Source: Bilabrum cf. latius
Lineage: Eukaryota
Length of the DNA: 64,000 nt
Assembly (NCBI GenBank): GCA_965178125.1
Contig: OZ237736.1
Location: 1,178,001 to 1,242,000, forward strand
Direction of reading: 5' to 3'
Under the pieces are notes generated by a model that was not told the origin of the DNA, searched no databases, and saw only the letters and a list, made by a program, of their open reading frames with translations. The translations under genes and the position numbers were made by a program. Within the stretch, counting starts at the first letter, position 1. Each line of letters opens with the position of its first letter. Shown piece after piece: positions 7,656-45,024 of this stretch.

Positions 7656-10600
7656 TTACTGCAACCATGGGCAGCGCTTCAGTTTTGTCTAAATACTGGA
7701 TGCCATGGCTCCCAAGCACTCTGCAAGTAGCTTTTGACTGGATGTTTCCATATCAGTGGCAGTAGTTGTCGCGAACCTTGCTGCGTAGCTGGCCAATCGG
7801 CATCCCAACCGGAAAGTGCCAGGCGCTGCCCTCGCCGAGCGGCATGCCGCCGTCGCGTATCTGGCCTCTGCTGCGGCTGCCCGCGAACTAGTCGCAATTG
7901 CTGAGGCCAGCTGTTGTCCTCTTACTTCGGCAGATGGATCTGCCTCATCGTTTCCGGCACCAAGCTGCCTGGCCTCCTCCACCTTGTGCTCCCACAGCTC
8001 CTTGCCCACTATGCTGGACGGCTCCAGGTGTCCCGAGGCACTGCAGTTCAATGCATGCGATGCCGACTGCGCAGCTAGTGCCAGCATCCTTGGCACAGGG
8101 GCAGCACTGGCCCCGCTCGCATCGTCCTCGCCGGGAGCAGCATCCGAGTCTTTGGGTTCGGCTTTCGAGGCCTGCCGTAGCGCAAATGCAGCTTTCTGAC
8201 AAGCAGCCACCACCGCCCACGGAGTCTCTGCATCGTTCAAATCCTTCTGGGCGGCGTGCGTTTCTTCTGCTTGCCTGAGCGAGTCCTCTGCAGAGCGCAG
8301 GGCCGATTCGTTCCACGGGGATGAGGAGCCCTCCTCGCCCTCTGGGCGCATGAGAGCCGACACTGCCCGAGCAATCTGCCCCGCACACGCGGCAACGCTG
8401 CTCTCCCCAGCGCCAGACCCGCCGCTCTTATCGGACCTGCCAGGACCAGCCGGCACTCCCAGCGCAGATGCAGTTGCGGCAAGCTCTGTCTGCTGGAGGG
8501 CACCGCCCACAGTCGGCTCGGATGCGCCATCGGGGCCCGTACCGAAGCTGGCGCGACTCAGGACGAGCAGCGCAGTAGCTTTCTATAGGTGCGGCCCGAT
8601 CACACTAAGGGTTTTCTCGTCGCTGGTGCTGGTTGCTAGCAGGACCCCCGTGCGGAAGGCCTCGGATAGGTGGGGGTCCCTGCTGCTTGCCGACTGCAGC
8701 CGCTTCATCGCGGACTTGCTGTCGCCGCATTGCGCGGCACCGCTGGCTGATACGACTAGACCGACAGCCGCGGTTTCTGTCGATCGAGCGGGTGTGTCGC
8801 CCTTGAAAGATTTAAATAGAGACACGCTGTCCTTGGAAGCAGCAGCCAGCTCGGCGACCCAATCGGCACCTCCCGAACCCTCGCCAACTGGTTTGCACCT
8901 GGCCAGAACAGAGAGAGCCACTAGTCTGCTAATGCTGCACGTGAACGACTCGAAATCGTGATAAGAGCCGCTCGGTGATGCACCGGGCCACCTGGAAGCG
9001 GTCGTGCTCGTGCCTGACAGGCCACTGTCCACAGTGCCTGCACCACCAGCCAGAGCGCCAGAAGACGTCTAGGCGAGCAATCTAACGACTGCTAGGCCAT
9101 GTGTTGCTGCAGCGCCCGCCGAGCTTGGCTTTGACTCTTCGAATGCCTTGAAATCCGGGTACCTGGGGAGTCCAGGGCCATCAGGGGGAAGAGCAGCATC
9201 ACCAATTGGTTCAGCAAAAGCAACAGATGTGGCTGCGGCTGCTGCAAAGCAACGGGCTGCATTCAGCCACAGTGGCCTTAGAGCAGATATCAATGCAACG
9301 CTTGCATCGCCTGCCATCGATTCAAGCAGCGACTTGCAGTCGATCTCTTCGCCGGCAATGGCTCCTGCGCATGACGCCCACCGACCGACTGCAGCTGCTC
9401 GGTCCAAGATGGCTCCTGCTGCTGCAGGGCCACCCGAACCACTCAGTGCCCCGGCGGCACCGGAGGACACCTCTGGCCCTGGCGCATGGAGCATGACAGC
9501 TCCGAAAGCAAGGGTTCGAGCAGCTAGCAAGTAGGTAGTTGCTGCGTGGCATAATGCAGAGGGACTGGCGGTGGGCTGGCACTCGGTTGCGACTGCGAGG
9601 GCGAGGAGAACCTGAGGGTCAGCAGGCGCACGCTCCCATGCCTCCTCGGCCAAGGCAAGTGCATCCTGCACCCCGGACTGGGTCAAGGGAAGCGCGGCGG
9701 CGGCTTCGCCAGCTGAGCGGACCATGGCGCTCGACGACACTGCGCCCACCGTGACTGAAGCACCAGCTTCACTGGGCTCCCGGAGTGGACCTCCCACCCC
9801 CAGAGCAAGCATCGCTGTTGCTGCGCACGAGGCCGCCGGCATGCCTGAGTCAGCGGAGGCAAGCGATGCGGCTGCGGCGCGATTCGCCATCGATCTGGCT
9901 TCTTGCAGCTTCTCGACTGTGCTCGTCTCTGCCGGGTCTTCTTCGTGCGCTACAGAGGCACCACTGGCTGTTGGCGAGTCTGCAGCGGGGTGCAGCAAGC
10001 GGTTTAGCCTCTGGGCGGCAGCAGCTGCCTGTCCCGCCCACATGGCAATGTTGTTCGGGTCCACCGCCTGAGCTTCCTGAAGAACCTGTGCTGCCACATC
10101 TGGCCTCCCGTAGCGCAGCAGGAGGAGCCCCAATGGGCCGAGCGCACGGCCCGACCCCGAGGCTCGCACAGCAGCGGTCAGGATCTTCGCCGCTGCGGAT
10201 GGCTACCCATCTTCTGCCAGTGCAATGGAAAGGCCCGTCAACGCTCGTGCTGAGGCAGGGAAAACTCTGGCTGCTTCCGCGAAGCTATCAATGGCACGGC
10301 TAATTTGATCGCTGCCCAGCATGGACGAATTCAGTCTCAGCATGGTTGCGCTCGGATCTCCACCGCTGATAATTCCAGCTGCGTTGGACGATCCAGTGCC
10401 CTGCGCTATCGCATAGTACTCAAGCAGCGAGAGCTGGCCGGCCTAGCAGAGCAAGTCAGAAGCATCCAGATTCTGCCCGCGTTCCACCCCGACGGATGCA
10501 GCCTGCCGAAGCATCTCATAGGTCTGCAGCAGCGCGGCATCTGCTTGCTCCGATGTCCAGGAACGCTTCGAAGCCGCTGCAACGCGCGCACGCGGACCGA

Positions 10601-17432: not shown

Positions 17433-20400
17433 TCAATCAGTCCCAAGAGCCAGTCGCAATTCCCTCACACCATCACCAACCGCACCCTCACGGCCACCTT
17501 CATCGGCATCTCTGAGAGCCCACCCGCCGGCAAGCTCATGTACCGCGACCGCTGACATGCTCCCGGGGGACGCGTCGATGCCAGCAGCCCCGACACTGCC
17601 CCGCAGCCCCTTCGCAGACGCAAACACGACAGCCAGGTACAGGCGGCCAGCCGGCCGGGGACCACCGCCATTAACAGTCAACCCGACCGCGCGCGGCGCG
17701 TCCGAGTGCTTGCGGCCCTCCCCACCACCGCCCTGAAACACAGAGCGCACAGCATCCGCTGAGTTCTCCCGCACTATAGGCCCAGATGGGTCCACTGTCA
17801 GATCAAACGCGGCCAGCGTACCGGAGTCGCCCACAGCGAACAGACCTCCAGGCCGCACAGAGGACCACGCGAGCGCTGCCACAGAGCGGAATATACCGGC
17901 AGCGGCCGCTTTGTCGGATGGTGGCTTGTCTGCATCGTGCATTGTGGGGCACACCGCGTCCCAAGTCCGCAGAGGATACGGGGATTCCGCCCCTAAATCG
18001 TATACGCTCACAGACCCGTCCTCTCTGCCCACGGCTGCGATTGCGCTGTCGAACGGATTCACGGCCACGCATGTCACAGGGGCGAGCACGGAGCACGGCC
18101 CGATGTACTGAGACAGTTCCAGCTGCCTGGATAGAGCCCCGCTGCTGCTGGCGCCTTCACTGGCCGTCCCGTCGTCATCGTCACCATCTACTGCGTTGCC
18201 GTCCGCGCCAGACACCGGGAGGTCTGGCAGCAGGCAACGAATGGGATGAGCCGAGCCATCGCTGAGTACTAGCGGTACCCTGCCGTCGCGACCCCCGACA
18301 AGAAAACCCCTCCCACTCTGGAGAGCAGCACACCCTGCAACGCGCCTCCCGACCGTCCACACGTCAGTGCCGTGCCAGGAGTCTGCAGCCTCGCCAGATC
18401 CAGGGTGTCGCGCAGAAGCTGAACTTGCGAGCGCGCCTGCGCCAGCATGTGTTACATCATAGTCCGTTGGCAGGGCATTCGGCAGCGAGAGCTCCGCCAC
18501 GACGCCCTCGGGCCCTCGGGCCGATCTGCCGAGCATGCCAGCGCCCTCGCTCCTCGAGGACGTGCCGTCTCGCCTGCCTGCGCGACCAGCGGTATCGTCC
18601 AGCTCTCCGTCTCCCAAGTCGAAGCCGTCAAAATCGGCGGCAGCCGAGCCTTCGGCCCGCTTGTCACCGCCCTTCCTCCCACCTGCGTCGATCCCCGTCC
18701 CCGCGCCCGCTCGTCCGAAACCGTCGACAGCCCCAACATCTTGACCAGACAGCTTTTCATCAGCTTGCCTCTGCTCCATCTCCAGGGCCTGTCTGCGCCG
18801 CGCCTCGTCCTCGACCGGTAGTCCAAGCGGTGCGCCTGGCAGCGGCCGGGGGAGGCACCGGAAGGAGTCGAGCGCGTACATCCGACGGATGGCAACTACC
18901 GAGCCGACGGAGCGGCTGTGGACCGAGAAATCACGCGCTCCGTCCGCGCGCGGGTCGATCTGGTCCACCCGAGGAGCATTCGTCTGCACTCGCCAGGCGA
19001 TGATGCAACCGTGCTCATCACAGCTGCTCAGCGTGAAGGAAGAGTCCGCTCCTACACCGGCCGACTGTCGCCCCATGCCCAGCTTGCTGACAGCTGGGCC
19101 CGAGGCACCGACAGCCGACGACACGTGGGAACTACCGGTGTCGGCCAATTCAAGGAAGAGGACCGCGCTGCGATGCCCGCCCCACCTATCGTCCAACCTT
19201 GCGGGGCCACCTTCCCTACTTCCAGCCGACCGGTGCGCATCGCTGCGGACCCGATCCAGGGAGAGGTCAGTGGTGAGGCAGGGGCGGCGCACCTCGCAAT
19301 CGAGCTAAGAACTCATGCATTCGTGCCAAACGATCGAGTGGGCATCTGGAGGCCCCTTGACAGACGCAGCCCCATCTGTTTTCGATTCGGCTGAGGCGGA
19401 GCTCGAGCCCCCACCCGCGATGAGCTGCAAAGGCGCGTGCATGGATGCAGCCTCGCGCAGGTCCCAGGCCTCGATACCCCCAGTCTCAGTGCCTGCAAAC
19501 ACCACGGCACCGTCACCAGGCGAGAATACCAGGCTGCACGGAGACGAACCGACCAACAGCACGGCTGCCGGTTTCGACCAGTCTTGGGTGGACCACAGCA
19601 GCACCAGCCCGCACCAGTACGCGGCTGCAACTCCAGTCTGGTTTTCGTGCGCATCGCTCGCATTCGCGCTGGTGCTGAATCCCACTGCCATGCGGGCATG
19701 ATCTGGGCTGAAGGCCACGCACGTCGCCCTCCGGTTGTTCAGCAGACCGGGCAACGAGTTCGCCGCGATGCAATGCGCAGCGACGGTACCAGGACCCGCG
19801 CCTGAGGCCCCCGACCGCTGCCGCAAAGGCACGGACAGCTGCCGGAGGGCCTGCCGCCTGGCCGCCAGACGCACGTCACCGCGCGGCGCACCCCCAGGGG
19901 ACAGCCCCTGGTCGGCCATGTCCCTCATCATGGAAGACCATGCTGCCTGCCTCTGCTCCGCCAAACCACGCGCCACAGACTCGGCAAGCAGGGTCTCGAC
20001 CGTGCGACCAACACGGCGCAGAAACGCGCCGAGGGCAGATGACTGCCTCGTCGCCAGTAGCGCGCCGGAGGTGCTCGGCTCCTGGCTGGCAGCAGCGGCG
20101 GCGGCGGCGGGCCCACGGGATGAGGCCTCGTTCTATCTGTCCATCGCGCGCCACGCCGCGTGCAGCCTCGGATCTTCGGGTGCCTGTACGACGGCCTCCC
20201 TTTGCGTGACTTCGTCTGTCTAGCACTGCACATCCGCCACGTCGTCGTTGGTCTGGGCCGACATGTTCGCTAGCCCGCCCTGCTGCACGGCCCGCTGCAC
20301 CAGCTGCTGCTACGACTGAGGGGCCATCGCAAATAGCACGGTACGCGCTTCAGACATCTGGAGCTTGCCGGCACTACGAAGCGCAGTCACTCGCCGGGCC

Positions 20401-21595
20401 CTCGGGTGGGCCTGGCCCGTCCTAGCCCTCGCCCTGCGAGCCTGCTCCGCCTACCGGCGGGCCCTGTCCTGTGCCTGTGCAGCATCTGCACCGCTGCCTC
20501 CGGCTGCACCACCTTCCTGTTGCATGGCGGCCTGCAGGATAGAGCTGATACCACCCTCGCCCGCTCCCCTCGAGCCCCGTGCGCGCGAGTCACCGCCGCT
20601 GCCACCGCCCTCGTCCCCTCTATCGTCGTCGTCACCTTCCAGACCCGCGTTCTCGTCGTACTCTGGAGCAGGAAAACCCGGCTGCTGCTGCTACTGCTAC
20701 TGCTACTGCACCCTATGAAACGAGTGCTGCCCCTGTCCACCTACAGTGGGGCTGCCTGCCGCACCAGACCCCAGCGAGTGCCCCTCGGAGAGCGCACTCC
20801 CGCCGGTGGGAGCTACGATGCCGCGCTGGGCGAGCCTGCCCCTCTCCTTCTTTAGGATCGCGCTTTCCATCTCTCGGCGTTCTGCTGAGGGGCTTCGCCT
20901 CAATGAGGGTTGCGTGGCGCCGATCTTCACGGGGCCTCCCTTGTCCCCTTGCTCGTCGTCCTCGAAGTCGTCGTTCGAGTAGTCCTGCAAAATGTGGACG
21001 GCAACCGATTCAAAACCAAATAGGATTCTCCCGCAATGGCGCCGACTGCACACGTATCATGTCTAGCATTGCCTTACTTCGAAATCATCGTCTCCGTATT
21101 CATCGTCTTCGTCGCTGCCGCCGCTTGGCTGGGCGTGGCCCATTGCAACTGGTGTTGGGCCTCTGCTGCCGGCCGATGCCCTGGAGTCTGCAGACCCTCG
21201 GCCAGCTCCAGCCATGGACTGTGGCGTAGCAGAGTCACGAATGCCCACAGCGGGACTGACGCCGTCTTGTGCCTCTTGCACGAACATGGCTCTGCGGCAA
21301 TTCTCGAACGGATCCGAACGATTGGCTGATGCGGCAAGGCTTTGCTGCTACTCTTCAGGTGCACCAGTGCATGCTCTTACGATGATTTTCGCTTTCTGGC
21401 TGCTGACTAGGGGCGGCGGGCCATAGACGGGAGGCTACCAGCTGGGGTTGCTCGTGCGACAGCAGCGCTGCTCGTGCCACTCGGTGGGATGGCTGGCGAT
21501 CTACCGCGTGATGAGCTTCTGCTCGTCCTCCCATGCTATATCTGTCCCTTTTGTACCCGAACAGCTCGTCGCCCTGTTCGTTGTGCACCAGACAT
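17433..21595 (-). CDS. WDR60: Dynein-2 intermediate chain WDR60/DYNC2I1 (start codon uncertain, 21595 or 21287)
   Basis: Acidic N-terminal YGDDDFE/DYSNDDFED across an intron near 21077-20986. SAQTNDD..VQC*TDEVTQREAVVQAP matches the WDR60 QT motifs. WD40 motif VFAGTETGGIEAWDLREAASMH is WDR60-like. Ends at TGA 17435-17433. Confidence 0.82.
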
Positions 21596-25548: not shown

Positions 25549-25802
25549 GCAAGTGCTTCCCACAGCAATGGTTGGGTGGCAAGTGCTTGGCACTACTTTA
25601 CGATGCCTAGGTGAACTGAAATAGACACCCGCTGTGTAGTCATTAAGAGCGTTGGCACTCGTGTGTCCGACTCATTTAATAGTTAAGCGAACTAATGCCA
25701 CCGCAAATGCCCCATGCCTCTAGGGGGGACGGCCTCAGGCTGCTGAGACTAATCATAACTGCGGGTAGCTCTTTCAGCTCATCATGCATAACTTTTGCAG
25801 CC

Positions 25803-27953
25803 TTAGTCTGGCGACGTTAAATCAACAACAATACCTGGCGTTGAATCGGCCAGCCCAGCCAACGGGCCAGGTGCGGAAGCGCCACCGCCTCTTGAGCTCT
25901 CGCCAGCCATTCGCCTGCTTCTCTTCTTTACAGGAGGAGATGGGGTGCACAAATCTATCGCAGCTAGCTGACTACCTTGCGCACGGGCCCCTGTTGAGCC
26001 AAGCCCATGCCCCGCAGCCCCACCCAATCCTTCCTCTTGGTTGCTGCCTAGCTCTTTGACTCCAGCGCGATATTCGATCGCTTTCGGATGCGATGCATCA
26101 TGTGGCCCACGAAGTCGTTTGCGCTTCTGGCTTCGTCGAGCAGCCTGTCTGTCTGCACCGCTACCCCTTGGCTAAATTGGATACAAAAGGGAAGGTCCAA
26201 CATCACCCTGGCTGCTATCACTGTTGCTGTCGCTGCCGCTGTCAGTCACAGATTTGCTACCGCTACTGCTGCAGCTGCTGCTGCTGCTGCTGCTTGATAT
26301 GTCGAGCGAGCGGCCTTGGTGTGCTTCTCTTCGCGGTGACCTGGGGGGTCCACTGCTGCGGAGACCTGAGCCGGGTCGTGGACGCCCGTGGCTTTGCTCT
26401 GCCGAGCACAATGGTCGCAAACTTTGCGTGGATGGCTCCTTCATCGAAGCGGCGGCCTTGTGTTCAAGCTGCCTGCTGGGTCTTGCCTTGCCATCGCGCG
26501 TTGCATCCTCGTCGTTGCTGCCGCTGCCACTGTCGCTGTCAGTATCACAAACAATCATACCGCCACTGCAGCTGTGACTGTCGCTGCCACTGCCGCTGTG
26601 ACTGTCGCTACCATTGCCGCTGTCGGTACTACTGACGCTGTGACTGTCGCTGCCACTGCCGCTGTGACTGTCGCTGCCATTGCCGCTGTCGGTACTACTG
26701 ACGCTGTGACTTCTACGGTCCACCTAACCACTACCACCGTCTATGCTCCCATCACTGCCTGGTTCCACGGACGAGGATCTTCGACGATGGGACTCTACTG
26801 AGGACCTGGCAGCCGGCTGTTGCGTCGTGGCCGGCAATTCGGTGCTCTCCCCGCTTGCTCCGACCATGTCATTCTGACACAGCGCATGCTGTACTCCGCG
26901 GCGAAGGCTCAGGCAGTCCTTCCACTGAACCACCTTTCCACATGCCGGACACGTCACCCTCTGCGGGAGAAGTCTCTGCTCCCATGCGCTAGTGGTCGAA
27001 TCAGATGCGGTCCTGGATGTACCCGACAATTCTGCATCCTTGCATCCAGCCGCACTGCCGGCCGCTGCAGATGATGATGCAGCCGAGGAAGATGACGAGG
27101 ATGCGAGCAGGACTGGCCTCACAACGCCTTCCTCAGCTTCTTCGCTCTTTGTTTTCTAGGCAGATGCGCCCTTGCAGGCAGGGTGCAGTAGGCAGGCGGC
27201 GTGCATGGGCCGCAAGCATGCAGGGCACTGCACCACCCTTGCCAACGGCACATCCTCGTGACACTCGTAGCAGCGAACGCAATGGCTGGCCGGATGACGG
27301 ACGCCGCTTTGTAGTCTTATTGGTGAGGCTAGAGAGGGGCTGGAGGCTCGACCGTGCAGTGATCCAGCGGCAGCCCCTCCGCCCGTTGCAAGCGAGCGCA
27401 CGAAGTGCACGGCAGCCCGAACGTCTGCGCGATCGAATCGATTCTGCACGGCCGATTGAATAAACTCGTCAACGGATTCGAGGCCTGCGGGGGCCCGGAC
27501 CACCGAGTCATCCCGCTCAGCGCTCTGAAACCATGCCTACGAAGCCGACAACCCGACCACTTCAGGGAAGGCAAGCGCTTGCAGACCCATGGCTCCAAAG
27601 GGCATCTGCCCTGCAAGCTGGAGCGCGGTATAGAATCTTGATTGGATTCTTTTGGTCCGCTAGCCAAGAGAATTAGCTTGTCGGCCTATGAGCGATCTAT
27701 TTGGATGCTGCAGAGCCCACTCGAATTGCAACGCTTGCACCTCGTCGCTGAATCCAAACACTATCATGACAAAGCGCCAGGGCCTTCCATGTCTAGTTGA
27801 CTTGGCCCCTCCCATGATGTCGCCATTGTGCTGTCGAATGCGTCTGTCTGGGCTATTCGTTTTCCCAACGTACGTCCTTCGACCCGTTGCAGCAACGACA
27901 AGATACACGCACCAGCACCCAGCTGACCTGCTTCGCGAACGACCTTTGGGCAT
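25803..27953 (-). CDS. SLX1: Structure-specific GIY-YIG endonuclease SLX1-like, with a RING-like zinc domain and a long low-complexity tail (716 aa)
   Basis: CVYL...RTYVGKTNSPDRRIRQHNG...GGAKST...RPW...VFGF....ALQFEWALQHP, then C-x2-C...CPAC...H..CL. Later TCPAC. ORFs 27660, 27156, 26724, 26172 and 25803 are one frame joined by TAG; TAA stop. Confidence 0.88.
26570..26712 (-). repeat. 60-bp coding tandem repeat (~2.4 copies; Ser/Asp/Gly-rich) inside SLX1
   Basis: gctgtgactgtcgctgccactgccgctgtgactgtcgct.ccattgccgctgtcggtactactgac is repeated and encodes SHSVSSTDSGNGSDSHSGSGSD. Confidence 0.85.
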
Positions 27954-28266
27954 CAAGACTAACGTTTCAAAAACTTACAGCATGCAAACGCCCAAAGCGC
28001 TCAGGTGCTCATATAGCAATCAAGTTGATACGATAGTCGGCGCACATTTGCCCACATGAGGGCAAGCTCATCAGGTGCCACCAGTGGCCTCTATTGCTTG
28101 AGATAGTAGCAGAAGATATCGTGGAGATTTTTTTTGATCTTTTGCGTATCAGTGTCTGCTGAAATGGCGGTTCAACAAAGTTCGTAGATCTATACTGCGT
28201 ATTTGTTCTCATCCTCATTCCTCAGCCACTAGAGCGAGCATTTCCCGGGCTGCTCAGCTTGCTACA

Positions 28267-29791
28267 ATGTCCGAGAAAAGTGCAGCAGCCGTATCGATCT
28301 CAGCCTAGGAAGCCGAAGTGTATGACCGTTAGATTAGGCTATGGGGTGTCGAAGCGCAGCAGCGCATGAAGGGGTCGAAGCTGCTGTTCATCGGAATCAC
28401 GGGAGCATCTGCTGAGGCAATCAAGAATGTTGTCCTGTCTGGAATGAATGTCATTGTTTTGGACAAAACTATTGTGTAGACGCAGCACATTGGCGCAAAC
28501 GTACTGCTGGGCCCAGAAGCAGTTGGCAAGCAGGTGAGATTTTGAGTTGCCATTTGAGCGGAGTGCACAACACGCTTCCGATACCCCCTAGAGGACATGA
28601 GCTCTCCCCATCGTACCACAGAAAGATGAAGCAGCGCTAGAGTAGATGAAGAAGCTGAATCCGTACGCTCGCTTGTCCGTATCGAAGGCTTCGACAGCGT
28701 TGCCTGCCACTGAGGCTGATTTGGAGGAGGCTCAAATTGTTGTGCTAGGCAACGGCAGCGTACGTGACAAGCTAGAGATTGGAAATTTATGCCGCAGCTC
28801 GAACGCAAAACTGATGTGCGTCGACTCTCACGGCATGGTCCACAGCGTCCTCGTCGATGTAGGGGATCACACGTACAAGCACACGGTCACCATTGGAAGA
28901 AAAGATCAAGAGCCAAAGAAAATAGAATCGATAGAGACTTGTTCGACGCCCAAGATTGAAGAAATTTTCACTGGAGGTTGGGAGGGTGCTGCGCTGAAGG
29001 AGGGTAGGAAGCAGTCCAGCATGTCTGCCCTTGCAAACCTGAGCATCGATGCTGCAATTCTCGACGGAAACCTGAAGCCTTGCCCAGAGATTGCAGTGGC
29101 AGGCAGCAGTTCATCATCTTCGTCGTCTTCTGCCGCGTCATCATCCGAACGAGGCGATGGGGCAGTTCGGACGCTGTCGCAAGACTCGATAGCAGCCATC
29201 GAAGCGGAGCGAGCAGCATGGGGCAAGGTCGCAACAGCTGCTGCCGTGGCTGCTGCAGAGAAGAGAGGCCTTGCTGGGGCAGGATCGATGCTGTCGCCGT
29301 TTCTTGAGGCCGCTTGCCGGGGGTACCGCCTTGACTACGCGCCGGTGGGCAGCATCTCTGGAGGTGTGCTGGCAAGGGAGATCAGCAAGATCGTCACCCA
29401 GACGGATGCACCTTTCGCCAACGTGATCGGCATCGATGGCCTGCGGATGGAAGCTAAGGTGGGCAAGCTGCCACTGTCCGCGAAGTCCATTGAGGCTGCG
29501 GCTGCGAAGGCGAGGGAGCAGCTTCTGGCCAATGCTGGCGACGCAATGTCCTTGGATGACTCGAGTGATGACGATGAGGACGATGCCGTGGAGACGGTCG
29601 GCACCGGCAACGCTGGATCCGCAGGCGAGGCAGCGGGCACGGCAGCTGCCAGCGGGGCGGGTTCGAACGGGACGTCGGCCAAGGCGGCCGAAGATAATGA
29701 TTTGGATGATGACAGCGATGACGACGTCGAGATCGTCAGCGGGCCTGGTTCGAGCTCGAGCGGGAGCGGCCAGGCAGAGATGGAGAGCTGA
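28267..29791 (+). CDS. SAE1: SUMO-activating enzyme E1 subunit 1 (SAE1/AOS1, ThiF family)
   Basis: MSEK...EAEVYDR*IRLWGVEAQQRMKGSKLLFIGITGASAEAIKNVVLSG. Intron 28534-28621. Also KLNPYARL and APVGSISGGVLAREISK; TGA stop. Confidence 0.9.
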
Positions 29792-30029
29792 CAATCGTAT
29801 GAGGCAGTCACTGCGGCAAGTCAGCGTTAAGTATGCAAACTATAAAAGCACGTAAATTACATGGGTGTGCATTCCGCTAGGCCAATCAGGTAATCACTCT
29901 GCTACTGTGTCTAGTGTCAGCACACCAAGACACCGCACGCGGCCTAGTCTTCCCTACGCCGATGCTATACGATGTCCCAAGTCCCACCGTCTGATGAGCA
30001 CCGAACGGCGATGTGAATGCGAAAACAAG

Positions 30030-32492: not shown

Positions 32493-34116
32493 TCACGTGC
32501 TCTTCCTGCTGCCTCTCCTTCGCCTGACTTTCGCATCGCCGTCATCTTCCTCTTCAGATGAGTCGTTCCGGCCAGCCTCATCGCCACCCTCTTCGTGCTC
32601 CTCCTTCTCGTCCTCCTCTTCCTTGCCGCCCTCATGAAGTCCGCCCTTGGCCCTCTCGGCAGCCTCCGCCGCCTCCTCGTCCACCTCCTCTGTGTACTGC
32701 ATCAGCGCCTCGATGTCTCCCATCACGATTGCACTAGTCACGAGGGCAAGCAGAAGAGCCGGGACCAGGTACAGCAGCGCGGGCTGCGCGTGCTGGAACA
32801 GCTGCATCACCACCAGCGTGACGGACATGCCGCCCACGTAGTACGACAAGCCCAGCCCGAAGTGGGGCTTGAAGAAGGACAGCTGGCGTGCGCTGCCGCC
32901 CGGCGTGCCCGGCTTCAGCAGAAGAGCCTGGCCCTCGCTGCTTGCTCTGGATCTCGACACGTGCCCGCCTGAATTCGAATCCGCATCCGCATCCGCATCC
33001 GCATCTGCATCAGAATTGGACTTTGAGAGATCCCCGGATGGGGATGGCGTGGTCGGGTCCTCGTTGTCCTAGAAGGCAGGCAGCGCGGCGGATCGGGGCA
33101 GCCAGTGGCCTGCCCTGAGAGCGTCGAAGCGCAGTAGGAGCGCCAGGAACGCGCCCGGCAGCACGATGTCTCCCAGCCCGAGCATGTTCTTCGGACCCCC
33201 CGCACCCGGTATGGGGTACAGCAGCTTGATAGGGACATCCAGGTTGGTCGCTACCTCTTGCATCATCTTGGTGCCGAACACCATGACCACGTCGTACACG
33301 AAGAGGCCGGCCAGGAGCATGGCCCCCGTGGAGGGAGAGCCCAAGTTGAGGAGGCCGATGGACGAGAGGCAGACCAGCACTGCCACCGCGTTGTTGAGCA
33401 GCCAACCCAGCTCGTCAGATTCGACGAATCGCTCGGCTGATACTAGGGCAATCCCCAGGATGCCACCGATGATCCCAGTGAGGGTGACCGGAACGTTTAG
33501 CCACGGGACCGTGAACAACACCCGGTCCGGCCGTTGCTGCACAGGATGGGGGCACAGGGAGTGCTAGAGGGCGGGGCTTCATGGGAAACGTATCCAAGAG
33601 ATGCATGATATGCACCGAAAAGGTACACTGGACTACTCACTCCGTACAGTGCTTGCTGCATAAATCCCCCGATCAACCCGCCTATCGATAGGGAGGCGAT
33701 CAAGCTGAAGTACACGGAGACCAGGAATCCGGTCCAGCTGGGATCCACGTACCGTACTCCAATATAAAGGGCCACAAGAACTCCCCCCAATTGGATGGGC
33801 ATCATCATCGCATCTTTTGCGGACATTGCAACAGCTTCTTGCTGATCCTGCGCAGCAGCATCAAGCAGAGATCTTTCAAGCATCTAAACGCAAAAAAGAC
33901 AGGTATTAAGTACTATTGGATAGTCGATCTAACCTCTTCTTCGTCCAGTACGGCAGACTGAGCCAATGGAATGTGGGCACCGGCGTAGATGATCATGGAC
34001 GACGAAGCGATCACGTTAAACTCTATCGGGAGAATTTCCAAGACCATGCCGACATGGAGCAGGAGAAGACCGACTACAGGAATCAATATGTGCAGACTGA
34101 AGAGATTTGCTGCCAT
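32493..34116 (-). CDS. HM13: Signal peptide peptidase (HM13/SPP, GxGD aspartyl protease A22B)
   Basis: LAGLFVYDVVMVFGT, PIKLLYP, MLGLGDIVLPG and QPALLYLVP, with several TM segments. Two probable introns, one TAG at 33069-33071, and a TGA stop. Confidence 0.92.
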
Positions 34117-34222
34117 CTTGGGCGGTTCTCAATGAAATCCTGCGACCGGCTGGTTGGCAAGGTGGTTGCGACCGCTCTCCGGTTGCCGTTGCGAGCTTAC
34201 TTCAATCGCATATTTTGCAACA

Positions 34223-37200
34223 ATGAGCTCTTCTCCCAGGCCACCAAGCGACTAGAAGCAAAATTTACATACTTTGCTAGATACTGTGGAGAACGTGTAC
34301 CAGGTTCTCACAGGAAATGAGGCTAGCCAGCACAGGCTGTCAAGTGCAGCCCAGACGACACCTGCCCCTGCCACAGTCACAGCAAGAGCGCGTGCAGATG
34401 TCACAGTATCTCTTCTAGAAGAGATATTTCATCGCAGGCAAGGAAGAGTACGACCCTTGCTGCGATTGATCTTGAGCCACCTGAGAGCCGCAGTCTACAG
34501 ACATGCTGGGAAGAATATGATGGAACCACAGATGCTCTCAACCGAAGATTTGATAGGCGCCGACGGGGCTGCCACTGGCGATTTACATGACTCTGGGACG
34601 GACGGCACGTCGTTGAACGGAGAGGCGATAGCCATGTGCTTGGCACGTGAAATCCTTGGTATAGAGCCCGAGGCATCAGCTCGCCCAGGGGAGCATGGTG
34701 GAGCCGTATTAGAGCATTCGGAAGGAAAGCGCACCGAAGTTGATCCCGAAGGCTAGCTTACCCCGGGGATTGCGGCGGCAGGCCTCAAGGGGGCAACGAG
34801 AGCCGAGCGACTGCAGGTGAAGAAGCAGGTCATTCTGGCACTTACCCGAAGGCTGGTGCAGCGTAGACTGAACGACGAGGAAGAAGGGCGAACGGATGGA
34901 AGCTACATCTCCGAGGTAGCTCGGCTCGAGAAAGAGAAAGTCGATTCAAGGCGCAGGGTGCGAGAGCTGGAGGAGGGCAACTCAGCGCTGGCCAGGGTAA
35001 TGGGGCGCACAAGGAAACTCGTTGATGCGACTGCTGTGAGGTGGCAAAAAACGATCAGGCAGCACTACTTTAGGTACTGGAAGGCATTCACTGCTCGGCG
35101 ACGAGATCAGATGCGGCGAATCGACGCGATGGTAATGAGGCACGGCAGGGCAGGTCGGCTGAGGCTCGCGTTCGACGGGCTTCGAATCGGCACACGGTAG
35201 CTACGGGCGGAGCGAGCAGAGCGCGACTAGAAGGAAAGAGAGGAAGAAGCGGCACGCATGGAGTCCAAGCGGTCTGGTATCGCAGCGAGCACGGAAAAAG
35301 CACAGGCTGTTTCGGCTAGCTTGAGCGACAGGATTCGGGGCCAGCAGGCTCTGTCGCAGCAGCTGAGAATGCAGCTGGACACGCTGAAAGCCCAAGTATA
35401 GCGACAGCCTGCCAACCAATTACGAGCTGTAGCAAGGGCGTGGGCAGATGCAAGCATACGAGGGATCGGTAGAAAACTTGACAGGATCTGTTCGTGGCTA
35501 TTTGGAGATCTCTCTGGGCTTCGCGGTGCTGGCAAGCTTGACTTTCATCTGCCCCAGTAGTGGTCTCAACCGGTCGGATCAGGCCTTCGGCGAGGGCAGC
35601 AAAGTGGCCAAGGCATTGGCAGGCCAGACAGTAGGGCTGCCCCCAGTGACACGACCGGGAGGCATGTACCGGGCCAGTGGCCTCAGTACGGGAAGGGCAT
35701 CCCAGGAGAGTGCGATGCGTTCCGACCACCAGAGGATTAGCCTCTGTGGCCAGGCATGGATCTTGGCATGGATGTCGTGGTCAATCCAATGCTCTTACTT
35801 ACGCCAGCCGAGCTTAGCAAGTGCCATAAGGCTGCCTCAGAGCAGCTGACGCAGCAGCAAAGGAATCGCGAAGCTGCCAGGCAGTTCACGAGAAGCGGGG
35901 GTATCCCGGGTGTGTCGGGTCCCAGCACAGTACCATCCCCTTCGTTGCGATCAGAAGCGCAGGAGCCTCGTCTCGCCTACGATGATTCCCCCTTGCCGCC
36001 GCTGCCTGCTCTCGAGCACGCTGCGCTGCAAATCCTCGTTGAGCTGCCTCTGGACGCACTCGTACTACGATGGATGAACCACCAGCTGCTGGATGGGAAC
36101 AGGGTTAGCCACGGCCTCTTTGATCTTCGGGCGTACGCACAGCACTAGACAGTGGCGTCAGCAAACAACGCCCGGAACCAGCGGGCATCTCCAAGGCAAA
36201 AGCGTGCGTCCACCAAGGGATCGAAAGGACTGAACCCAGCGGACATCGTGAGCGCAGGTGCAGGCAGCGACTCAGATGATGATGACGAGGCAATCGACGG
36301 CGTGATTGCGTCACAGGTCTCACGATTTGACACTGGGATCGAACTGAAGCACACGCGCGACATCTCCAACGCTCTATAGTTCGCAGGGGACACGCATGAG
36401 CTCGACGAGGAGGTTGAAGGCGCTACTTCTGCAGATGGGTCTGAACACGCGTCTCCGTCGGGGTCCGAAACGCCTGCATCTCAAGCGTTGCACAGCCCTG
36501 TTACTCTAGAGCACAAGACGGCCAGTGTCACCCCTTCGATTGCAAGGCAGCGGGTCGCATCGCCTTCCCGGTGGTCAAGGGCGTCGTCTCGCAGATCAAA
36601 ACCGAGATAATCGGCTGCGTCAAGAAGACCGAAGGCCGCCAAGAGAGGGAAAAAGGCAGCAAGCGGTGCCGCAGATGGTACTACTGTGGGCTTGGGTAGT
36701 GGATTGTCGGCCATCAGCGACGAAAATCCGTTGCCGATCCTGAAAGCAGGCGCCGCCATCAGGGCAGACCAGCGGCGCGCAGTCGTCGAGAACCTGTCTA
36801 CGGATTTGGACGCACCTTCGCTAGCGCTGCTATCGCACCGGCTGTCAATATGCACAGACAGGCAAAGAGAAGACAAAATACTGAGGCTGTTGGCCCCTGC
36901 TGCTCTACACGGTGGGCAAGAGCACGGCCGCACTGCACCCGTGAACGCCAACGTAGTCAAGCAGCTTCTTGCTGGAGACACACTAGCTTGGATCCGAGCA
37001 GACCCATCTGATGCGACTGAAGAAGTCCGCCGCGCTGCGATATCTAGAATTGAGCTCGCAAAAGAAACGCTGTTTGAAGCCGCAGCTTCGGCGGCAGAAA
37101 CGCAGCAGGCTGCGTCGCACTCACGAGGTAGTCTGCTGGCGCAATCTCCAAGGTCGAGACTCAGCCCAACGCCGTCCATCCGCTCTACTCCGGGCAAGAA

Positions 37201-40200
37201 GAAGCAAGTCGGAGGCACTGTGAGTCGAGTCCCCTTCAGTTCTCCACGACGGGAGACCAAAGGGGTTGCTCCTGTTCGTAGCCGTGCGAGTCACGCAACT
37301 GCCGCTGGTGCCAGTAGCTCTGCAACCCCACGCATGGCAAGACATGCAACTTCAGGGGCTCCAGAGGCTGATTCAATTCATCCGTCTGAGGACCTGAACG
37401 ACGTGGCGGCGTTCCTCCGGGCCATGCGCGACGAGGGGCGCGCTGCTCCATACCTCCCTGCTGCACTGCGCCACATCCGAGCCAAGTCCTAGGCTGAGGA
37501 GAACTTAGCTAGGCTGCGACAGCTTGGTTTGCCTGATGGAATCCTAACTGTGGAGCACCTGCTTCATGGCGGTGCCCTCTCCTCTTCGGCGTGCATGGTA
37601 TCCATGTGCTTTCTGATGTGCAGCCGCCCAGAGCTGTGTGCGCCTCTTAGATTCGAGGCCAAAGCACAAAAGCACTCCATTTTGCACCCGTACCGCACTG
37701 CCAGTTTGTCGTCGTTTGCGTACTTGGCTAGCCTCGAGGCGGACGACGTGGTTAGGGAGCTGCTCGCAAGGTCCTCTTCCAGCGCAGGGGTGCAGCACCG
37801 TGGCAATCAAGCCCCTGGTCGGCTCCACATTGAGACTCCACGCGATACTAGAACCCGAATGGGAGGAAACATCAACGGCGTTCGACTGCCAACTGTTCCG
37901 CTGCCGCCCAGGACTAAAGATGCGCACATCTCGCCGGGCTTGCGCGATCCCGCTGCGCTACCGCTGTTACAAGTACGGGTACCGCCACCGTCAAGGCCAT
38001 CACAAGTCGGACCAGATGCCATGGACAGGCTCTTTGACCATCGCCAGTCGGCAGTAGGTGCAGCAGACATGGTCACGAGGATTCGAGGCGTGTTGGCCTC
38101 CGACCCCGACCCTTTGCTGGCAGCGCCTGCAACGTTTGCTCGCATCGTTCGCACCGCCAACCAGCTGCGGCTGGAGTGGCTCGACGTCGCATTCACGTGG
38201 AAACAGATTTGTGCTTCTCCTGTTGAGGTGCGGAGCGCATCGCTGCTGAGCCCAGATGCGCAGGAGGACGGTGGGCGAGGGCATGTGCGACGCGTGCACG
38301 CCCTCAAGCCGACTTGTCTCAACTACGACACTTTGCAGGCCATGGCAGAGTGTGTGGCTTTGTTGGAAGGAATAGTTGTTCGCGCGATCCAAGCCAGGGC
38401 GGCTCGACGCAACATGTGGATTCGCTTGCGCACGCACATCCAACAAGCTGCGTGGGCGGCGATGCGGAGGCGAGTGGCTCGCGTGCCAGTGCCTGTCAGC
38501 GACCGCAAGGAGGTGCGGCTGGTGCGCTCATTCACCGTGCAACCACTCAACTCTGTGCGTGCGCTGCTTGCACTCAGCAGGCTGGCCTAGAATTAGATGC
38601 ATGCAATTCTTTCCAAAGCCGGGGGCTGGTGGGCCCCGGTCTCCGTGGATGGCAGCACCGCGGTTGCGATGGGGATTGATGTACGGGAGCTGCATGCCAG
38701 GCAAGAGCGCCGCATGGAGTTGCTGACAGACGGAGCCGAGCAGTATGCAATCGATCGCGGTCTTCCCATCGTAGTTGGTCCATCCAAGGCTGTGCTGTTC
38801 GCCCCGACTATCAGCCTTCGAGGACAGCGATCCGCTCGGTCCGAAAGTCTTCAACGCGGAGGAGCGACTCGGTAGGCAATCCAAACTTTAGACAAGGAGC
38901 AGGGACTTCCAAAGGCATTGGAGCGTGGCAGAGGCAAGGGAGCTCCGCCACCCGCTGCCTTCTTCGAGGGCTTGGTACGGCGTCTGCACAAGAAGGAGGT
39001 CAGGGAGGGGCTGGCTGAGCTGCTGATGTTCTATTGCCAAGACCTGCGCAAGGTCTTTGATCACTACGCAGCCACTTCAAGAGGCGGTTCGGATGCCAAA
39101 ATGGACTTCGGTGAGTTCCTAGAGTTCGCACGAGACTCGAGGCTCATGTGCCGCTCAGAGCGTGACTCGGAATCGTTCACATGGTCCTCTACGTCCGGTC
39201 AGGGCGACTCCGTGCATGGCCGCACAGTAGGTCAAGCCAGCGATGTAGCTGTGCTTCGGGCTGCCACAGCGGGCCGGGCTTCGATGACTGCAGTTGCCGA
39301 TCAAGCGGCTCAAATCGCAAAGGCAGCTCGTAAGGCGCAGCAGGATGGAGCGGCAAGAGGGGGAGCATCTGCATCTTCGAAGGGATAGAGGAGCAGAACG
39401 GGAGGTGCTGGCATGGGCAAAACGACGTTCATGCGATCAAGCGGGGGCAAGTCAACCGTAGTTGGCCGAGGGGCCGGGTCCCAGGAGTGGCAGCTGCCCG
39501 ACGAGATCGAGGTTGGGTTGACTCGCCAGGACCTCAGGGGTGTGTTCCTGGCATCATGTCCGTCGCAAGTGGCCACAAGCATCATTCAGGCCTCCGCCGC
39601 CGTAGAAGACCCAACGTTTGTGGGTTCTTATGAGCTGTCGCCCGGCGAGTTCGGGAATGCTCTCCTTCGGGCAGCTGTGGTATTCTGCGGCAAGTTCCGT
39701 TGTTCGCTTGCCTCTCGGGAGGTGAGAGCACAGGCAGCAGCGGCAGTATCAAAGGCAGAATCCCTCGGGCTCCGGCCGGAGTCGACACCGAGAGGAGACC
39801 CACGACGGCTTCCATTTTTCCGACTGCCTACGCCGGACTTTGAGGGCGGGGCCCCAAGGCAAGACCATGCCTCGAGGGACGACGAGCTGTAGCTTGGTGT
39901 GAGGCAGCCTCTCAAATCCTTCCTAGGTACATTGGTTAGCCCCCCTTCGCTTACAAGCCAAGTCGGGTCATTGCTTGGGACTGTGGATCAACCCAGCAAG
40001 AAACACGCCCGGCGGCTGAGCGTGAGTGGTCTCATTCCGAACCAGCCGCTACTCGCGTTAGCAGCAGGAGCCGGGGCGCCATCGATTCCTCTTGAAGTAT
40101 GGCACGCTACTGCTGATCCATGCATCGCATTTTGCGTTATCATGCGCTGGTTTGTTCTGCGACATGCTGCCATGGAGCCTGACAGTGAGTGGGCAGCACA

Positions 40201-41989
40201 CATGCGAGACGAAGCGGTCCGAGAGGTTATGTCGAGGCTGCGGCCATTTTTGCACGCGATTTACATCTACTACGCCAAGACTCGGATAGAAATCAACGAA
40301 AGGCAGAGGATTGCGCAGATCGAGCGAAGTGTGGGCGGCACATCGGATGTGCCACCACCCAGTCTGCGGGCAGACGGCTCTTTGGCACAAGGGGCCATGA
40401 CTATTGAAGACTTACTTCGCATGCTCGTTCGAGACTGCTAGCTAGTTTCACTATCTGCTGGCAAGTCTTCTTCGTATGGCAGCTCCAGGGGTAGCCGTGC
40501 CGTGGTGCGGTCGTCAAGCTCGCGTGGATCTGACCAGGCACGGCGGCGCGTCCCGGCAGTTGATCTGCTGTGGACGGCGGCACGAGCGTTTGATAGCATC
40601 ACGTCGTTTGAGGCCGACAACGGCGCGCACAGCAACATAAACTTTGGGGATAGTGTGCTCAGCGTCCGGGCACCCGTTGGCGACCGGGGTATGCAGCACG
40701 CAGGGGCCGCGCCCCCCGAGGCCATTGGGCGCGATCGATCGAGCAGCAGAATCCTTGGAGAGGCAAGGAGGTCCGGAAGGGGTATTTCCATGGTATCTGC
40801 CGCGTCGAGTGACAGCAGCGCAGCGAACCGTTCTCCTCGAGCGAGTATTCACGCAATGCTCGATTCCTCGCGTACAGCGCTGGCAGCCCACCCAAGCGTG
40901 CTGAGGCGCGACGCGAAAAGCACAAGGCACGTGCTGCGGCCTCGAAATTAGATGGATAGCGATTCTGATTTTACAGATGCTGAAGACATGTACTCATCCG
41001 ACTCAGACGCCTCCTCCTCCGATGAGGGCGATGCTGGTGTGGCGGCCCCATCGAATGGCAGTGGTCTTGGTGCCAGGCGGCCGACCTCGCGAGATCTTGC
41101 GAAGCACACGTCGTTTCGAAGAAACCGGGGCACGAACGTGCCATGCATACCAGCAAGTATCAAGCCAGAGGTACTGACGCATTTGTTTCCCAAAGAAGCC
41201 CGCATAGCCATCGCAAAGGAACGCGAGCAGGCTCTGCACCGCCTGTAGATTAGAGTTGGGAAGCACCAAGCGCATGGAGCAGAACTGCCTGATGGTGCCC
41301 ACATGTCGGTAGCTAGCTCTGCTGAAGCCCCATCCGTGTCTAGCCAGCCTGACCATCTGCAGTCTGGCTCGGTGTCTGGTCAATCTGGGGTGCTTTTCGC
41401 CTCGAATGCCGCCGCGAACCAAGCGAGGCGTTCCAGCGTCCGACGGGGATCCACGGCAGGCCTCGAGCAGCCATCGAGAACAAAAGCGAAGCCGTCGACT
41501 CGAAGCGGTGGCAAAACCACTGGTACGGGTAGATCCTCTTTCTCTGGCAAGCAGGACGTGGAGGACCGCGAGAGGTTCGAGTCGATTGGCAAGGCCACTG
41601 AGCTCCCGTACCCAAAGTTCATCGAAGTTCTAGTGGCGCTGGCTCACCTGAGCAGTCCAGACCCATATACGCATCCAGCGCACAAATTAGAGGCGTTCCT
41701 CGTCAAGTCAGTGCTTCACAACTTCGTTTTTAAGCTAGCCAAGAATGGAGACGACACTGATTGGCAGACAAAACTGGAGAGAGCCAGGGAGGGCGGTGAT
41801 ACCCAGACCAACATCCGGGCCATCTTTGCAGGCTCCAAAACGAGGCAGACGAAGAGGCGTTTCAAGTACAGTGGAGCATACGAAGACATTTTGCGACTGC
41901 TCCCGAAGGAGGCCGCTAGCGGAGTGGGCATGAGGATTGAGGCTTCACCGAAGCGAGCACCGCCCTCAAATGTTGGCCGATGGTGGTAA
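34223..41989 (+). CDS. Large hypothetical protein (~2,590 codons) with coiled coil, CH-like segments and EF-hand-like motifs
   Basis: About 13 ORF-track fragments all fall in one frame, joined by roughly 19 TAG codons and one TAA (36608). Motifs LVLRWMNHQL, VENLSTDL, MDFGEFLEFARD and LPYPKFIEVLVALA; ends TGG TGG TAA. Confidence 0.72.
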
Positions 41990-42100
41990 ATAGCTAATTA
42001 ATTGCTCCGTAAGGTATCTTCTGGTTCAAGGTACACGTTTCACGCATGCAGTAGCCTCTGATATTTGTGTTCAATGGTACTGCATGCATGAAAACCCAAC

Positions 42101-43207: not shown

Positions 43208-45024
43208 ATGCTGCCGAACAGAATGTTAGCAAGGAATGTAGCAAGGTCGCTATTCTTCCGTTCCAGGTGTGCCGCATGGCTTCAGCGTGCTCGGCGCGGC
43301 TTGGCAAGTGTTCCCGATGATTCCCCAAACGATGAGGAGTTCGAATCGCGAGAAGACCACCGGTTGTACTTGCAAGGCTAGGCCCTCCTTCCTGCTGGTT
43401 TTAAAACGTCAGTTGGTTCATTCCCTTTCAATCCCGTGGAGCTTCCGGACCTGAAGACTTCAATGACTATGACGCTGATCGTACCCGACGAGCCAGCATC
43501 CTCATTTGCTGCCATGTACACTTCAAACGCTATCGCTGGCCATCCAGTGTACATTGGCAGGGAGGTGGTGAGCAACAAATAGGCTAGGCTTGGCGGTATC
43601 GTGGTGAACAACAAAATATCGAACGTCGGAGCGCCCGGTGGTCGCGAGGCGGCTGCAGCCGTGTGCAACGCGCTCGCTAGAGAGCTTGGACTCAGCAGCG
43701 AATCCAAGGTAATCCCATCTTCGACTGGAGTGATTGGGTGGCAAATTCCATCGGAAAAAATGATCAAGGCGATTCCAGAGCTCGTGGATGGCCTCAAGCC
43801 TGGGTCGATGCTGCCGGCCGCCGAGGGCATCATGACCACGGACCTGTACCCCAAAGTTCGTGGTGCAGATGTCCAAGGAACGAATGCCAGAGTCGTAGGA
43901 ATCGCAAAGGGGGCCGGAATGGTTGAACCAAACCTCGCCACGATGCTGGTGTTCATCCTGACGGACGCAGACCTGACCAGGGAGGAGCTTGACGAGGACC
44001 TGCGAGCTGCAGTCGGGGTCACCTTCAACTGCCTTTCGGTGGACCAAGACCAGAGCACCTCCGATTCTATCATCGTAATGTCGTCCCAGAAAGAGCCTTG
44101 CGACGGTCCGGAGGCGCGAAATGCCTTCAGGAAGGCACTGCTGGACGTGTGCGGCCGCCTTGCCATGGACGTGGTGCGGAACGGGGAGGGCGTGCAGCAC
44201 GTCATTCAGGCGACCGTAAGAGGGGCTCCCTCGAAGCAGCTTGCGGTAGATGTTGGTCGATCCATCGTGAACTCTCCTCTATTCAAGACCGCGGTGGCGG
44301 GCAACGATCCGAACGTGGGTCGGCTACTGATGGCGGTTGGCAAGTGCGTGGGGCAGCACCCCGATGCCTCTGAGGAATACAGGAGGAGCAGCAAACTTGC
44401 CGAGTCTATGACAGCTAGCGTGGGTGGTATAACAGTCTACGAGAACGGCCAGTTTTCTCTCTCTTCAGACAAAGAGCAGGCACTCCAGCAGCACATGCAG
44501 GAGGCGCAGATGTGGCGTGAGCAGTCAGTGCGTTAGGGGTGTAAATCACCGCTCCACGCCTTTCTCTTGTTCGACAGCAAAGCATGGATGTTACCCCCCA
44601 CCCCCATGCGTGCCATACCTCTGCCCAGCCGCATAGTCCGCCGCACATTGCACATCTAGGCAACGAGTTGGTTGGTTTTGGTGCCCAATCTTCCACCGCA
44701 GGATCCACTCCCGAACTGCTCAGGTCGCCGATCGCGGTCCGTGATGGACAGGTCGTTGACCAGTCGGTCCACCCCGGCCTCGATGGGTAGCACGGGGGCC
44801 CAGTGGCTATGGCAGACGACGATGCTCCGCAGGAGAAGCCCCCACGATGGTTCGCTCGAGCGTCTGACCTGAGTTTCAAGCCTCCGGTCGATTTCCCTCC
44901 CCATCAGCGTTGCGTTGAGGTTGACGTTGATCTGGGAATGCAGAATCCTGGAGAGGGCGGGGTTGTCCTCGGTGGGGACTTGACCTTCGAGTATGTGGCA
45001 GTGAATGCTGAGTATCGCTCCTGA
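43208..45024 (+). CDS. argJ: Bifunctional ornithine acetyltransferase/N-acetylglutamate synthase ArgJ, with an organellar transit-like N-terminus
   Basis: LPAGFK, SSTGVIG, IMTTD.YPK, GIAKGAGMVEPNLATML (autoproteolytic Thr), FNCLSVDQDQSTSD, VRNGEG, SPLFKTAVAGNDPNVGR and DLTFEYVAVNAEYRS. Probable intron 44528-44577. Confidence 0.94.

Follow-up and report, generated by a model that had tools for sequence, protein, structure and literature searches.

In-frame TAG at the near-invariant glutamine of a SUMO E1 subunit, and evidence that UAG is a probable glutamine codon beside UGA and, very probably, UAA stops in a 64-kb window of eukaryotic nuclear DNA

Codes in which UAG is read as glutamine and UAA is kept as a stop have been described for the fornicate Iotanema spirale (PMC5304391) and for the ciliates Hartmannula sinica and Trochilia petrani (PMC11687900). 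Codes in which UAA and UAG (together, UAR) both specify glutamine have been described from many ciliates, hexamitin diplomonads, Dasycladales, Cladophorales and oxymonads (PMC5304391), and from Amoeboaphelidium protococcarum (PMC6299283); excerpts of these papers, and of PMC6279746 below, are the basis for what we cite from them. Here we analyse a stretch of 64,000 nucleotides (nt) from Bilabrum cf. latius (assembly GCA_965178125.1, contig OZ237736.1, positions 1,178,001 to 1,242,000 of the forward strand), which we call the window and in whose own coordinates all positions are given. At its centre stands a gene for a SUMO E1 subunit of the SAE1/Aos1 type, in which a TAG occupies a position that the protein family reserves almost entirely for glutamine, and the same use of TAG recurs in the other long genes of the window. 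The code with UAG alone as glutamine, which we take to be NCBI table 15, is the reading against which we compare the alternatives.

The letters at 28321-28347 on the forward strand read TAT GAC CGT TAG ATT AGG CTA TGG GGT, and with the ATG at 28267 as codon 1 the TAG at 28330-28332 is codon 22 (Table 1); the letters and the frame count both agree with the earlier note, which had described a YDRQIRLWG motif whose glutamine is written TAG at this codon. To remove the bias that comes from writing glutamine into the query, a search of the PDB was repeated with X at every TAG of exon 1. Human SAE1 was still the top solved match (E = 1.7e-15) among 28 distinct PDB sequences at E <= 0.001, and in all printed alignments, which comprise four constructs of SAE1 and the two adenylation halves of yeast Uba1, glutamine faces the X of Y-D-R-X, the yeast halves reading Y-S-R-Q and Y-D-N-Q at the motif. 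For column statistics, 1.84 billion representatives were searched in full with HMMER, which yielded 1990 matches at E <= 0.001, and the best 150 of these were taken to give 151 aligned rows; the query that retrieved them carried glutamine, which biases the search by one residue in 90. In this sample of the best 150 of 1990 matches, the codon 22 column holds Q in 148 of the 151 rows, G in two and a gap in one, with the same result when the aligning query carried X, and the Y, D, R, R, W and G columns of the motif are each kept in 149-150 rows. The claim that this glutamine is near-invariant in the family is thus borne out, and the observation of a TAG at the Gln22 codon of the SUMO E1 small subunit is confirmed.

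Across the motif region, 12 of the 15 residues compared are those of human SAE1. Codon 22 directly follows the codon of Arg21, the numbering Y19 D20 R21 Q22 being as in the human protein, and the excerpted account of human Sae1 has Arg21 contacting ATP and reaching the gamma-phosphate in the active site of the partner subunit (PMC6279746). Because this ATP-contacting residue precedes codon 34, a protein restarted at the next methionine, which is codon 34, would lack a catalytic residue. The gene's three other TAGs stand in variable columns and carry no information on the inserted residue (Table 1); at codon 71, P0027, a relative at 72% identity, has L.

The gene consists of two exons on the forward strand, 28267-28533 and 28622-29791, and runs to 478 codons closed by TGA. 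It has four in-frame TAGs (at 28306, 28330, 28477 and 28643) and no TAA, and its sole TGA is the terminator; if the intron is retained, the frame meets a TGA three codons in. With glutamine written at the TAGs, the best match of exon 1 in the PDB (phmmer) is human SAE1 residues 1-89 (E = 2.4e-16), followed at lower rank by Uba1 (5.6e-12), UBA7 (4e-9) and NAE1, the regulatory subunit of the NEDD8 E1 (2e-7), and for exon 1, the only part so treated, the order SAE1, UBA1, NAE1 is unchanged with X at the TAGs. That SAE1 is the best solved match, ahead of UBA1 and NAE1, accords with the earlier identification of the gene as a SUMO E1 subunit of the SAE1/Aos1 type. Scored separately against the Pfam ThiF profile (PF00899), the two exons match complementary parts of it, exon 1 at profile positions 1-73 (20.2 bits) and exon 2 at 75-225 (16.4 bits), both below the cutoff of 28.1 bits, and residues 237-276 of exon 2 match residues 297-336 of human SAE1, in its C-terminal helix region (E = 0.0017).

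The protein resembles human SAE1 (PDB 1Y8Q and others) in that its first 89 residues align with the human ones over their whole length, in its C-terminal helix region, and probably in being a ThiF-type fold without a catalytic cysteine domain. It differs in its length (478 residues versus 346) and in its highly diverged middle, each exon falling under the Pfam cutoff, and it contains a serine-rich insert and a long acidic Asp/Ser tail. From these alignments we file the gene as a probable SAE1/Aos1 orthologue with a serine-rich insert and an acidic tail. SAE1/Aos1 works as a heterodimer with UBA2/SAE2, which bears the catalytic cysteine; no UBA2 gene was found within the 64-kb window. A library search with exon 2, in which 8000 candidates chosen by shared words were scored, gave a single match, P0007, at 91% identity. 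The database open reading frame (ORF) P0007 begins at the methionine just after the exon 2 TAG, and P0027 begins at Met34 of exon 1; such late starts are what gene calling under the standard code gives if the relatives have in-frame stops upstream. A match from a metagenome scan, L001, 34% identical, proved to be an unrelated E1-like stretch and was not used.

Run X5 contains a contig of 1501 nt that joins 28252-28530 to 28619-29840, skipping 88 nt bounded by GT..AG (cut +3). This joint is exactly the intron predicted at 28534-28621, and the contig, which extends from 15 nt before the ATG to 49 nt after the TGA, differs from the window at no letter and keeps TAG at codons 14, 22, 71 and 97. 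We regard it as a mature-mRNA-like molecule and infer its RNA origin from the spliced joint. In run X1, 28100-29900 is present whole and identical within a 20-kb contig, and X1 may be the source of the window; runs X6 and X7 show no differences where they cover the gene, X6 from 28483 and X7 over exon 2 in pieces, neither reaching codon 22. The letter-identical sequence over 28100-29900 comes from four runs (X1, X5, X6 and X7) that bear four coded organism labels and four study codes.

TAG reassignment extends across the window, beyond SAE1. Over positions 1-45600 the longest stop-to-stop frame is 637 codons under the standard code and 2369 codons when TAG is freed, compared with 637 when TAA alone and 881 when TGA alone is freed. 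Five long frames delimited by TGA only, of 1647, 2416, 1207, 2641 and 6015 codons, contain 7, 20, 8, 18 and 10 TAG and 0, 1, 0, 3 and 4 TAA, respectively. The 7715 interior codons of the five long frames hold 47 TAG, 1 TAA, 220 CAG and 86 CAA, and 38555 off-frame triplets hold 256 TAG, 85 TAA and 524 TGA. The in-frame rate of TAG (0.61%, 47/7715) is thus close to its off-frame rate (0.66%, 256/38555), which indicates that TAG is not selected against. A hand-curated set of 13073 codons contains 81 TAG and 2 TAA, one of the latter being a probable terminator.

The distribution of TAA is of another kind. From its off-frame frequency about 17 TAA would be expected in the 7715 interior codons versus the one seen, a depletion of approximately 17-fold, and A-ending codons as such are not avoided, as CAA:CAG is 86:220 versus 1:47 for TAA:TAG in the same codons. 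Five TAA (at 7658, 17110, 25805, 41987 and 41999) fall within the final 60 codons of four frames among 12 that are delimited by TGA. The eight TAA of the five long frames include four that lie upstream of the likely start of a giant gene (described below) and three that lie 20-47 codons before the closing TGA. The tails that follow TAA are AT-rich, with a GC fraction of 0.38 in a gene for a TPR protein and of 0.43 in the frame 34136-42061, versus 0.61 before the TAA in the latter; GC was used here since codon-usage log-odds are too weak to judge the tails (mean 0.15 coding and -0.15 off frame, standard deviation 0.11). The gene for the U4 small nuclear RNA (snRNA) follows the probable TAA stop of the TPR gene at a distance of 93 nt, and the TPR frame would overlap it by 49 nt if reading went on to the TGA. 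We conclude that the gene ends comprise eight TGA and four TAA out of 12, and that UAA is very probably retained as a stop. The earlier note had made its claim for TAG only; restriction to TAG is supported in that TAA behaves as a stop, and a single internal TAA, at 36608, is left unexplained.

Several alignments bear on the residue that TAG specifies. Besides SAE1 codon 22, a TAG in a gene for ArgJ (X58 of the frame 43208-44533) stands in a column with Q in 79 of 120 homologues, the others including N (10), H (8), E (5) and R (5), and Q is also the residue of P0158, the closest full-length relative. On the reverse strand, codons 117-125 of the 1207-codon frame 17433-21056 read CAG TAG CAG TAG CAG TAG CAG CAG CAG, which is what silent C-to-T transitions would be expected to leave in a poly-glutamine repeat. 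The TAG in a gene for a signal peptide peptidase lies in a variable loop where 228 of 236 rows have a gap; there the nearest relative, P0278 (74-77% identical), and the next, P0279, can be compared (Table 1). The nearest relatives carry Q at two of three comparable TAG sites, and glutamine makes up 13 of the 161 residues that flank the 81 TAG codons and is, at 2.3 times its background, the most enriched there. Taken together, SAE1 codon 22, ArgJ X58, the nearest relative at the signal peptide peptidase site, the CAG repeat and the enrichment among neighbours support the assignment of TAG to glutamine proposed in the earlier note, and we consider it highly probable from these comparisons that glutamine would be the residue inserted.

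Our preferred account, which we hold to be very likely, is that the window comes from the nucleus of a eukaryote that is rich in GC, poor in introns and bears a cilium, and that has a cytoplasmic code in which UAG is glutamine and UGA and, very probably, UAA are stops. As ribosomes would read UAG as glutamine, the TAG at 28330-28332 would be an ordinary glutamine codon, Gln22 of SAE1. A number of observations weigh against this account. Every statistic is drawn from 64 kb; run X5 is labelled merely 'RNA? (probably DNA)'; and ARAGORN found no tRNA gene within the 64-kb window. Conserved columns that inform on the inserted residue number only two, SAE1 codon 22 and ArgJ X58, and six other aligned TAG sites are variable (SAE1 codons 14 and 71, ArgJ X125, and those in signal peptide peptidase, IFT144 and SLX1); of these, SAE1 codons 14 and 71 and ArgJ X125 never have Q as the commonest residue (at X125, gap 55, E 31 and Q 6 of 120), and the IFT144 and SLX1 sites are unconserved. 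The TAA at 36608 stands inside a coding-looking frame, and no GT..AG intron that would remove it is evident around the site; it could be a rare sense TAA, mark two genes in one frame, or be a polymorphism or an assembly error. Finally, two TAGs, at 7691 and 45697, fall within 11 codons of putative gene ends. The last two observations are the starting points of two competing codes. If TAG and TAA were both glutamine (NCBI table 6), with TGA the sole stop and TAA merely rare, the unchanged codon score across the TAA at 36608 would be accounted for, TGA does close every frame that is read on, and in the excerpted surveys no other variant comes near UAR = Gln in frequency (PMC5304391; PMC11687900). 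We nevertheless think this unlikely, given a TAA:TAG ratio so far from that of CAA:CAG, the shortfall from some 17 expected TAA, the cluster of TAA near the ends of four of the 12 frames with AT-rich tails behind it, the overlap with the U4 snRNA gene that the TPR frame would then acquire, and the fact that freeing TAA alone lengthens no frame. Alternatively TAG could be ambiguous, sense inside genes and a terminator near the 3' ends of mRNAs; context-dependent codes are those of Condylostoma and of karyorelicts. The TAG at 45697, two codons short of the giant gene's TGA, and that at 7691, 11 codons upstream of the TPR gene's TAA, where GC already drops and which may be the gene's real end, would fit such a code. 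Two cases in 12 gene ends compare with about 0.8 expected from the frequency of TAG, which is not a significant excess, and no gene of the window needs TAG as a stop, TGA and TAA being available and used; we therefore judge an ambiguous TAG to be improbable.

A sense TAG might also specify a residue other than glutamine, as it does in peritrich ciliates (Glu) and in the rhizarian exLh (Leu). Glutamate is the commonest residue at two of the variable columns, those of SAE1 codon 14 (37 of 151 rows) and ArgJ X125 (31 of 120), and one relative has leucine at SAE1 codon 71. Glutamine is preferred because the invariant SAE1 column, with its 148 Q, holds no Glu and no Leu; at ArgJ X58 the 79 Q stand against five E, with L outside the eight commonest residues, three TAGs are interleaved in the CAG repeat, and Q is the residue of the nearest relatives at two of the three sites where they can be compared. 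Glutamate or leucine is accordingly a very improbable assignment. The least credible of the alternatives, to which we give almost no weight, is that this SAE1 copy is a pseudogene, that sequencing error produced the TAG, or that RNA editing turns it into CAG. The standard code would indeed end the protein at codon 22, and the earlier note had named CAG in reads or transcripts, or a decayed copy, as what would overturn its interpretation. Instead, TAG is kept, with no other letters, in both the spliced X5 contig and X1, the splicing is precise and the letters are equal in four runs; the 478 codons contain four TAGs yet no TAA, internal TGA or frameshift, the motif region is as close to the human protein as described above, and every long gene of the window shows the same pattern of TAG. 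Insofar as contigs can decide, the intact frame and the contigs of X1, X5, X6 and X7 rule out a sequencing error, the editing of U to C and a pseudogene in decay. Our data show, in favour of the UAG = Gln code with UAA as a stop, that UAG is translated in expressed genes at glutamine positions without counter-selection and that UAA behaves as a stop.

Compared with Iotanema, Hartmannula and Trochilia, the window shares frequent sense UAG at conserved glutamine columns, a UAA that is not reassigned and hence the uncoupling of UAG from UAA. Unlike theirs, its DNA is GC-rich (54-70% GC) and holds one internal TAA that is unexplained; and UAA is their primary or preferred stop, whereas here eight of the 12 ends are TGA and four TAA. 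With UAR = Gln codes it has in common a stop-to-glutamine change that includes UAG, and a TGA terminator; unlike them it shows TAA depleted in coding frames and clustered at gene ends, and a joint reassignment of UAA is not what we find. Amoeboaphelidium, with its UAR = Gln code, was considered as the source of the DNA, but the depletion of TAA does not accord with what has been published on it. In appearance the window is unlike a ciliate macronucleus: it is GC-rich, lies in a 20-kb contig in X1 and carries multi-kb genes on both strands. In the open full-text literature (that is, without subscription journals and supplements) we found no GC-rich non-ciliate eukaryote with UAG alone as glutamine besides Iotanema.

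As to mechanism, the excerpted literature has an anticodon CUA reading UAG alone and an anticodon UUA reading both UAG and UAA by wobble, and gives a CUA tRNA with an altered eRF1 as the mechanism of other UAG-only codes (PMC11687900; PMC5304391); a suppressor tRNA is reported for two ciliate genomes with UAG = Leu (PMC11687900). By analogy, a tRNA-Gln with anticodon CUA would decode UAG, and not UAA, in the organism studied here, and its eRF1 may lack efficient recognition of UAG. An eRF1 gene was not found in the window.

Table 1. Features of the SAE1/Aos1 gene and of the TAG, TAA and U4 sites discussed in the text, in window coordinates.
Feature	Position	Strand	Basis or remark
5' untranslated leader (minimum extent)	28252..28266	+	X5 contig starts at 28252, 15 nt before the ATG
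SAE1/Aos1 exon 1, 89 codons, three in-frame TAGs	28267..28533	+	Translation; PDB human SAE1 1-89; Pfam ThiF
TAG, codon 14, variable column	28306..28308	+	Homologues E 37, D 27, K 25, Q 9 of 151 rows
Motif Y-D-R-(TAG)-I-R-L-W-G, codons 19-27	28321..28347	+	Letters, translation, column conservation
TAG, codon 22, probably read as Gln	28330..28332	+	Alignments; kept in spliced contig, 0 other letters
TAG, codon 71, variable column	28477..28479	+	Homologues T 43, S 29, E 20, Q 15 of 151 rows
Intron, 88 nt, GT..AG, phase 0	28534..28621	+	Predicted from frame break; X5 contig joint between 28533 and 28622
SAE1/Aos1 exon 2, 389 codons + TGA, TAG at 28643-28645 (codon 8 of exon 2)	28622..29791	+	
TGA terminator of SAE1	29789..29791	+	Relative P0007 has identical last seven residues
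TAG in ArgJ, mostly-Gln column	43379..43381	+	X58 of frame 43208-44533
Poly-Gln tract with interleaved TAGs, codons 117-125 of frame 17433-21056	20682..20708	-	
TAG in variable loop of signal peptide peptidase	33069..33071	-	P0278 has Q, P0279 has E
TAA, probable terminator of 2369-codon TPR gene	7656..7658	-	47 codons before next TGA; tail GC 0.38
TAA, probable terminator of frame 34136-42061	41987..41989	+	24 codons before TGA; second TAA 4 codons later
TAA within long coding-looking frame 34136-42061	36608..36610	+	Codon score equal before and after
U4 spliceosomal snRNA gene	7429-7563	-	Rfam RF00015, 66.4 bits, full length

The DNA of the window is eukaryotic and nuclear, and holds, besides a spliceosomal intron, genes for U4 snRNA, IFT144/WDR19, an SLX1-type GIY-YIG protein, signal peptide peptidase, a C2H2 zinc-finger array, a MORN protein and ArgJ. 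The IFT144/WDR19 gene, partial at 2-1240 on the reverse strand, covers the first and second beta-propellers (best PDB match 8bda_I, E = 1e-54) and implies that the organism builds a cilium. Immediately upstream of SAE1, on the opposite strand, lies the SLX1-type GIY-YIG endonuclease gene (25782-28019, reverse strand), whose C-terminal half is long and of low complexity (Ser/Asp/Gly); the gene contains four in-frame TAGs, and a TAA stands seven codons before its TGA. The zinc-finger array at 16570-17106 on the forward strand comprises at least six near-identical C2H2 fingers with a unit of 28 residues, and has a TAA two codons before TGA. The giant gene, of approximately 5900 codons (45689-63400, reverse strand), has an N-terminus with teneurin-type EGF domains and about 13 kb of tandem coding repeats at 46824-60136, with periods of 180, 225 and 405 nt and some copies 98-100% identical; the repeat unit is rich in Ser, Gly, Ala, Val and Thr and no TAG occurs inside the repeats. 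The tandem repeats are the cause of the extreme skew of GC and AT that the window shows at 46-60 kb.

The ArgJ frame (43208-44533, forward strand) has a presequence-like N-terminus and is about 52% identical to both Opitutaceae-type bacterial and oomycete ArgJ; the conserved C-terminal end of ArgJ is absent from the frame, which must therefore be followed by another intron and exon. Its closest matches are environmental sequences (73% and 98%), ahead of the Opitutaceae-type bacteria and oomycetes. Signal peptide peptidase is likewise closest to environmental sequences (74%, 59% and 39%), its named matches including fungi, plants, Cercozoa and stramenopiles, and the named matches of SAE1 are from Heterolobosea, Pigoraptor, a brown alga and Acrasis. 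Across these genes the nearest proteins are environmental sequences at 59-98% identity, and the named matches are scattered over several supergroups.

It is possible, although we would lean slightly against it, that the window records a case, not described before, in which UAG and UAA were uncoupled independently, in a GC-rich, cilium-bearing non-ciliate of a sparsely sampled lineage. Nuclear code changes are rare and the separation of UAG from UAA is rarer, and such a separation bears on the coupling of the two codons through tRNA wobble and eRF1, as excerpts of the literature have it (PMC5304391; PMC11687900). If the proposal is right, UAG alone would have passed to glutamine, with UGA as the main stop and UAA as the second, and the organism would be a free-standing, genome-backed case beside Iotanema, which is known from a transcriptome only, and the two ciliates. 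It would follow that a UAG-only reassignment needs no AT-rich genome that terminates at UAA. A practical consequence is that annotation under the standard code shatters the genes of such a genome, as seen in the fall of the longest frame from 2369 to 637 codons and in the ORFs of relatives that start just after TAGs. With its GC-rich DNA, long contigs and an expressed, spliced gene, the organism would lend itself well to a search for the tRNA(CUA) and for the changes in eRF1 behind this code.

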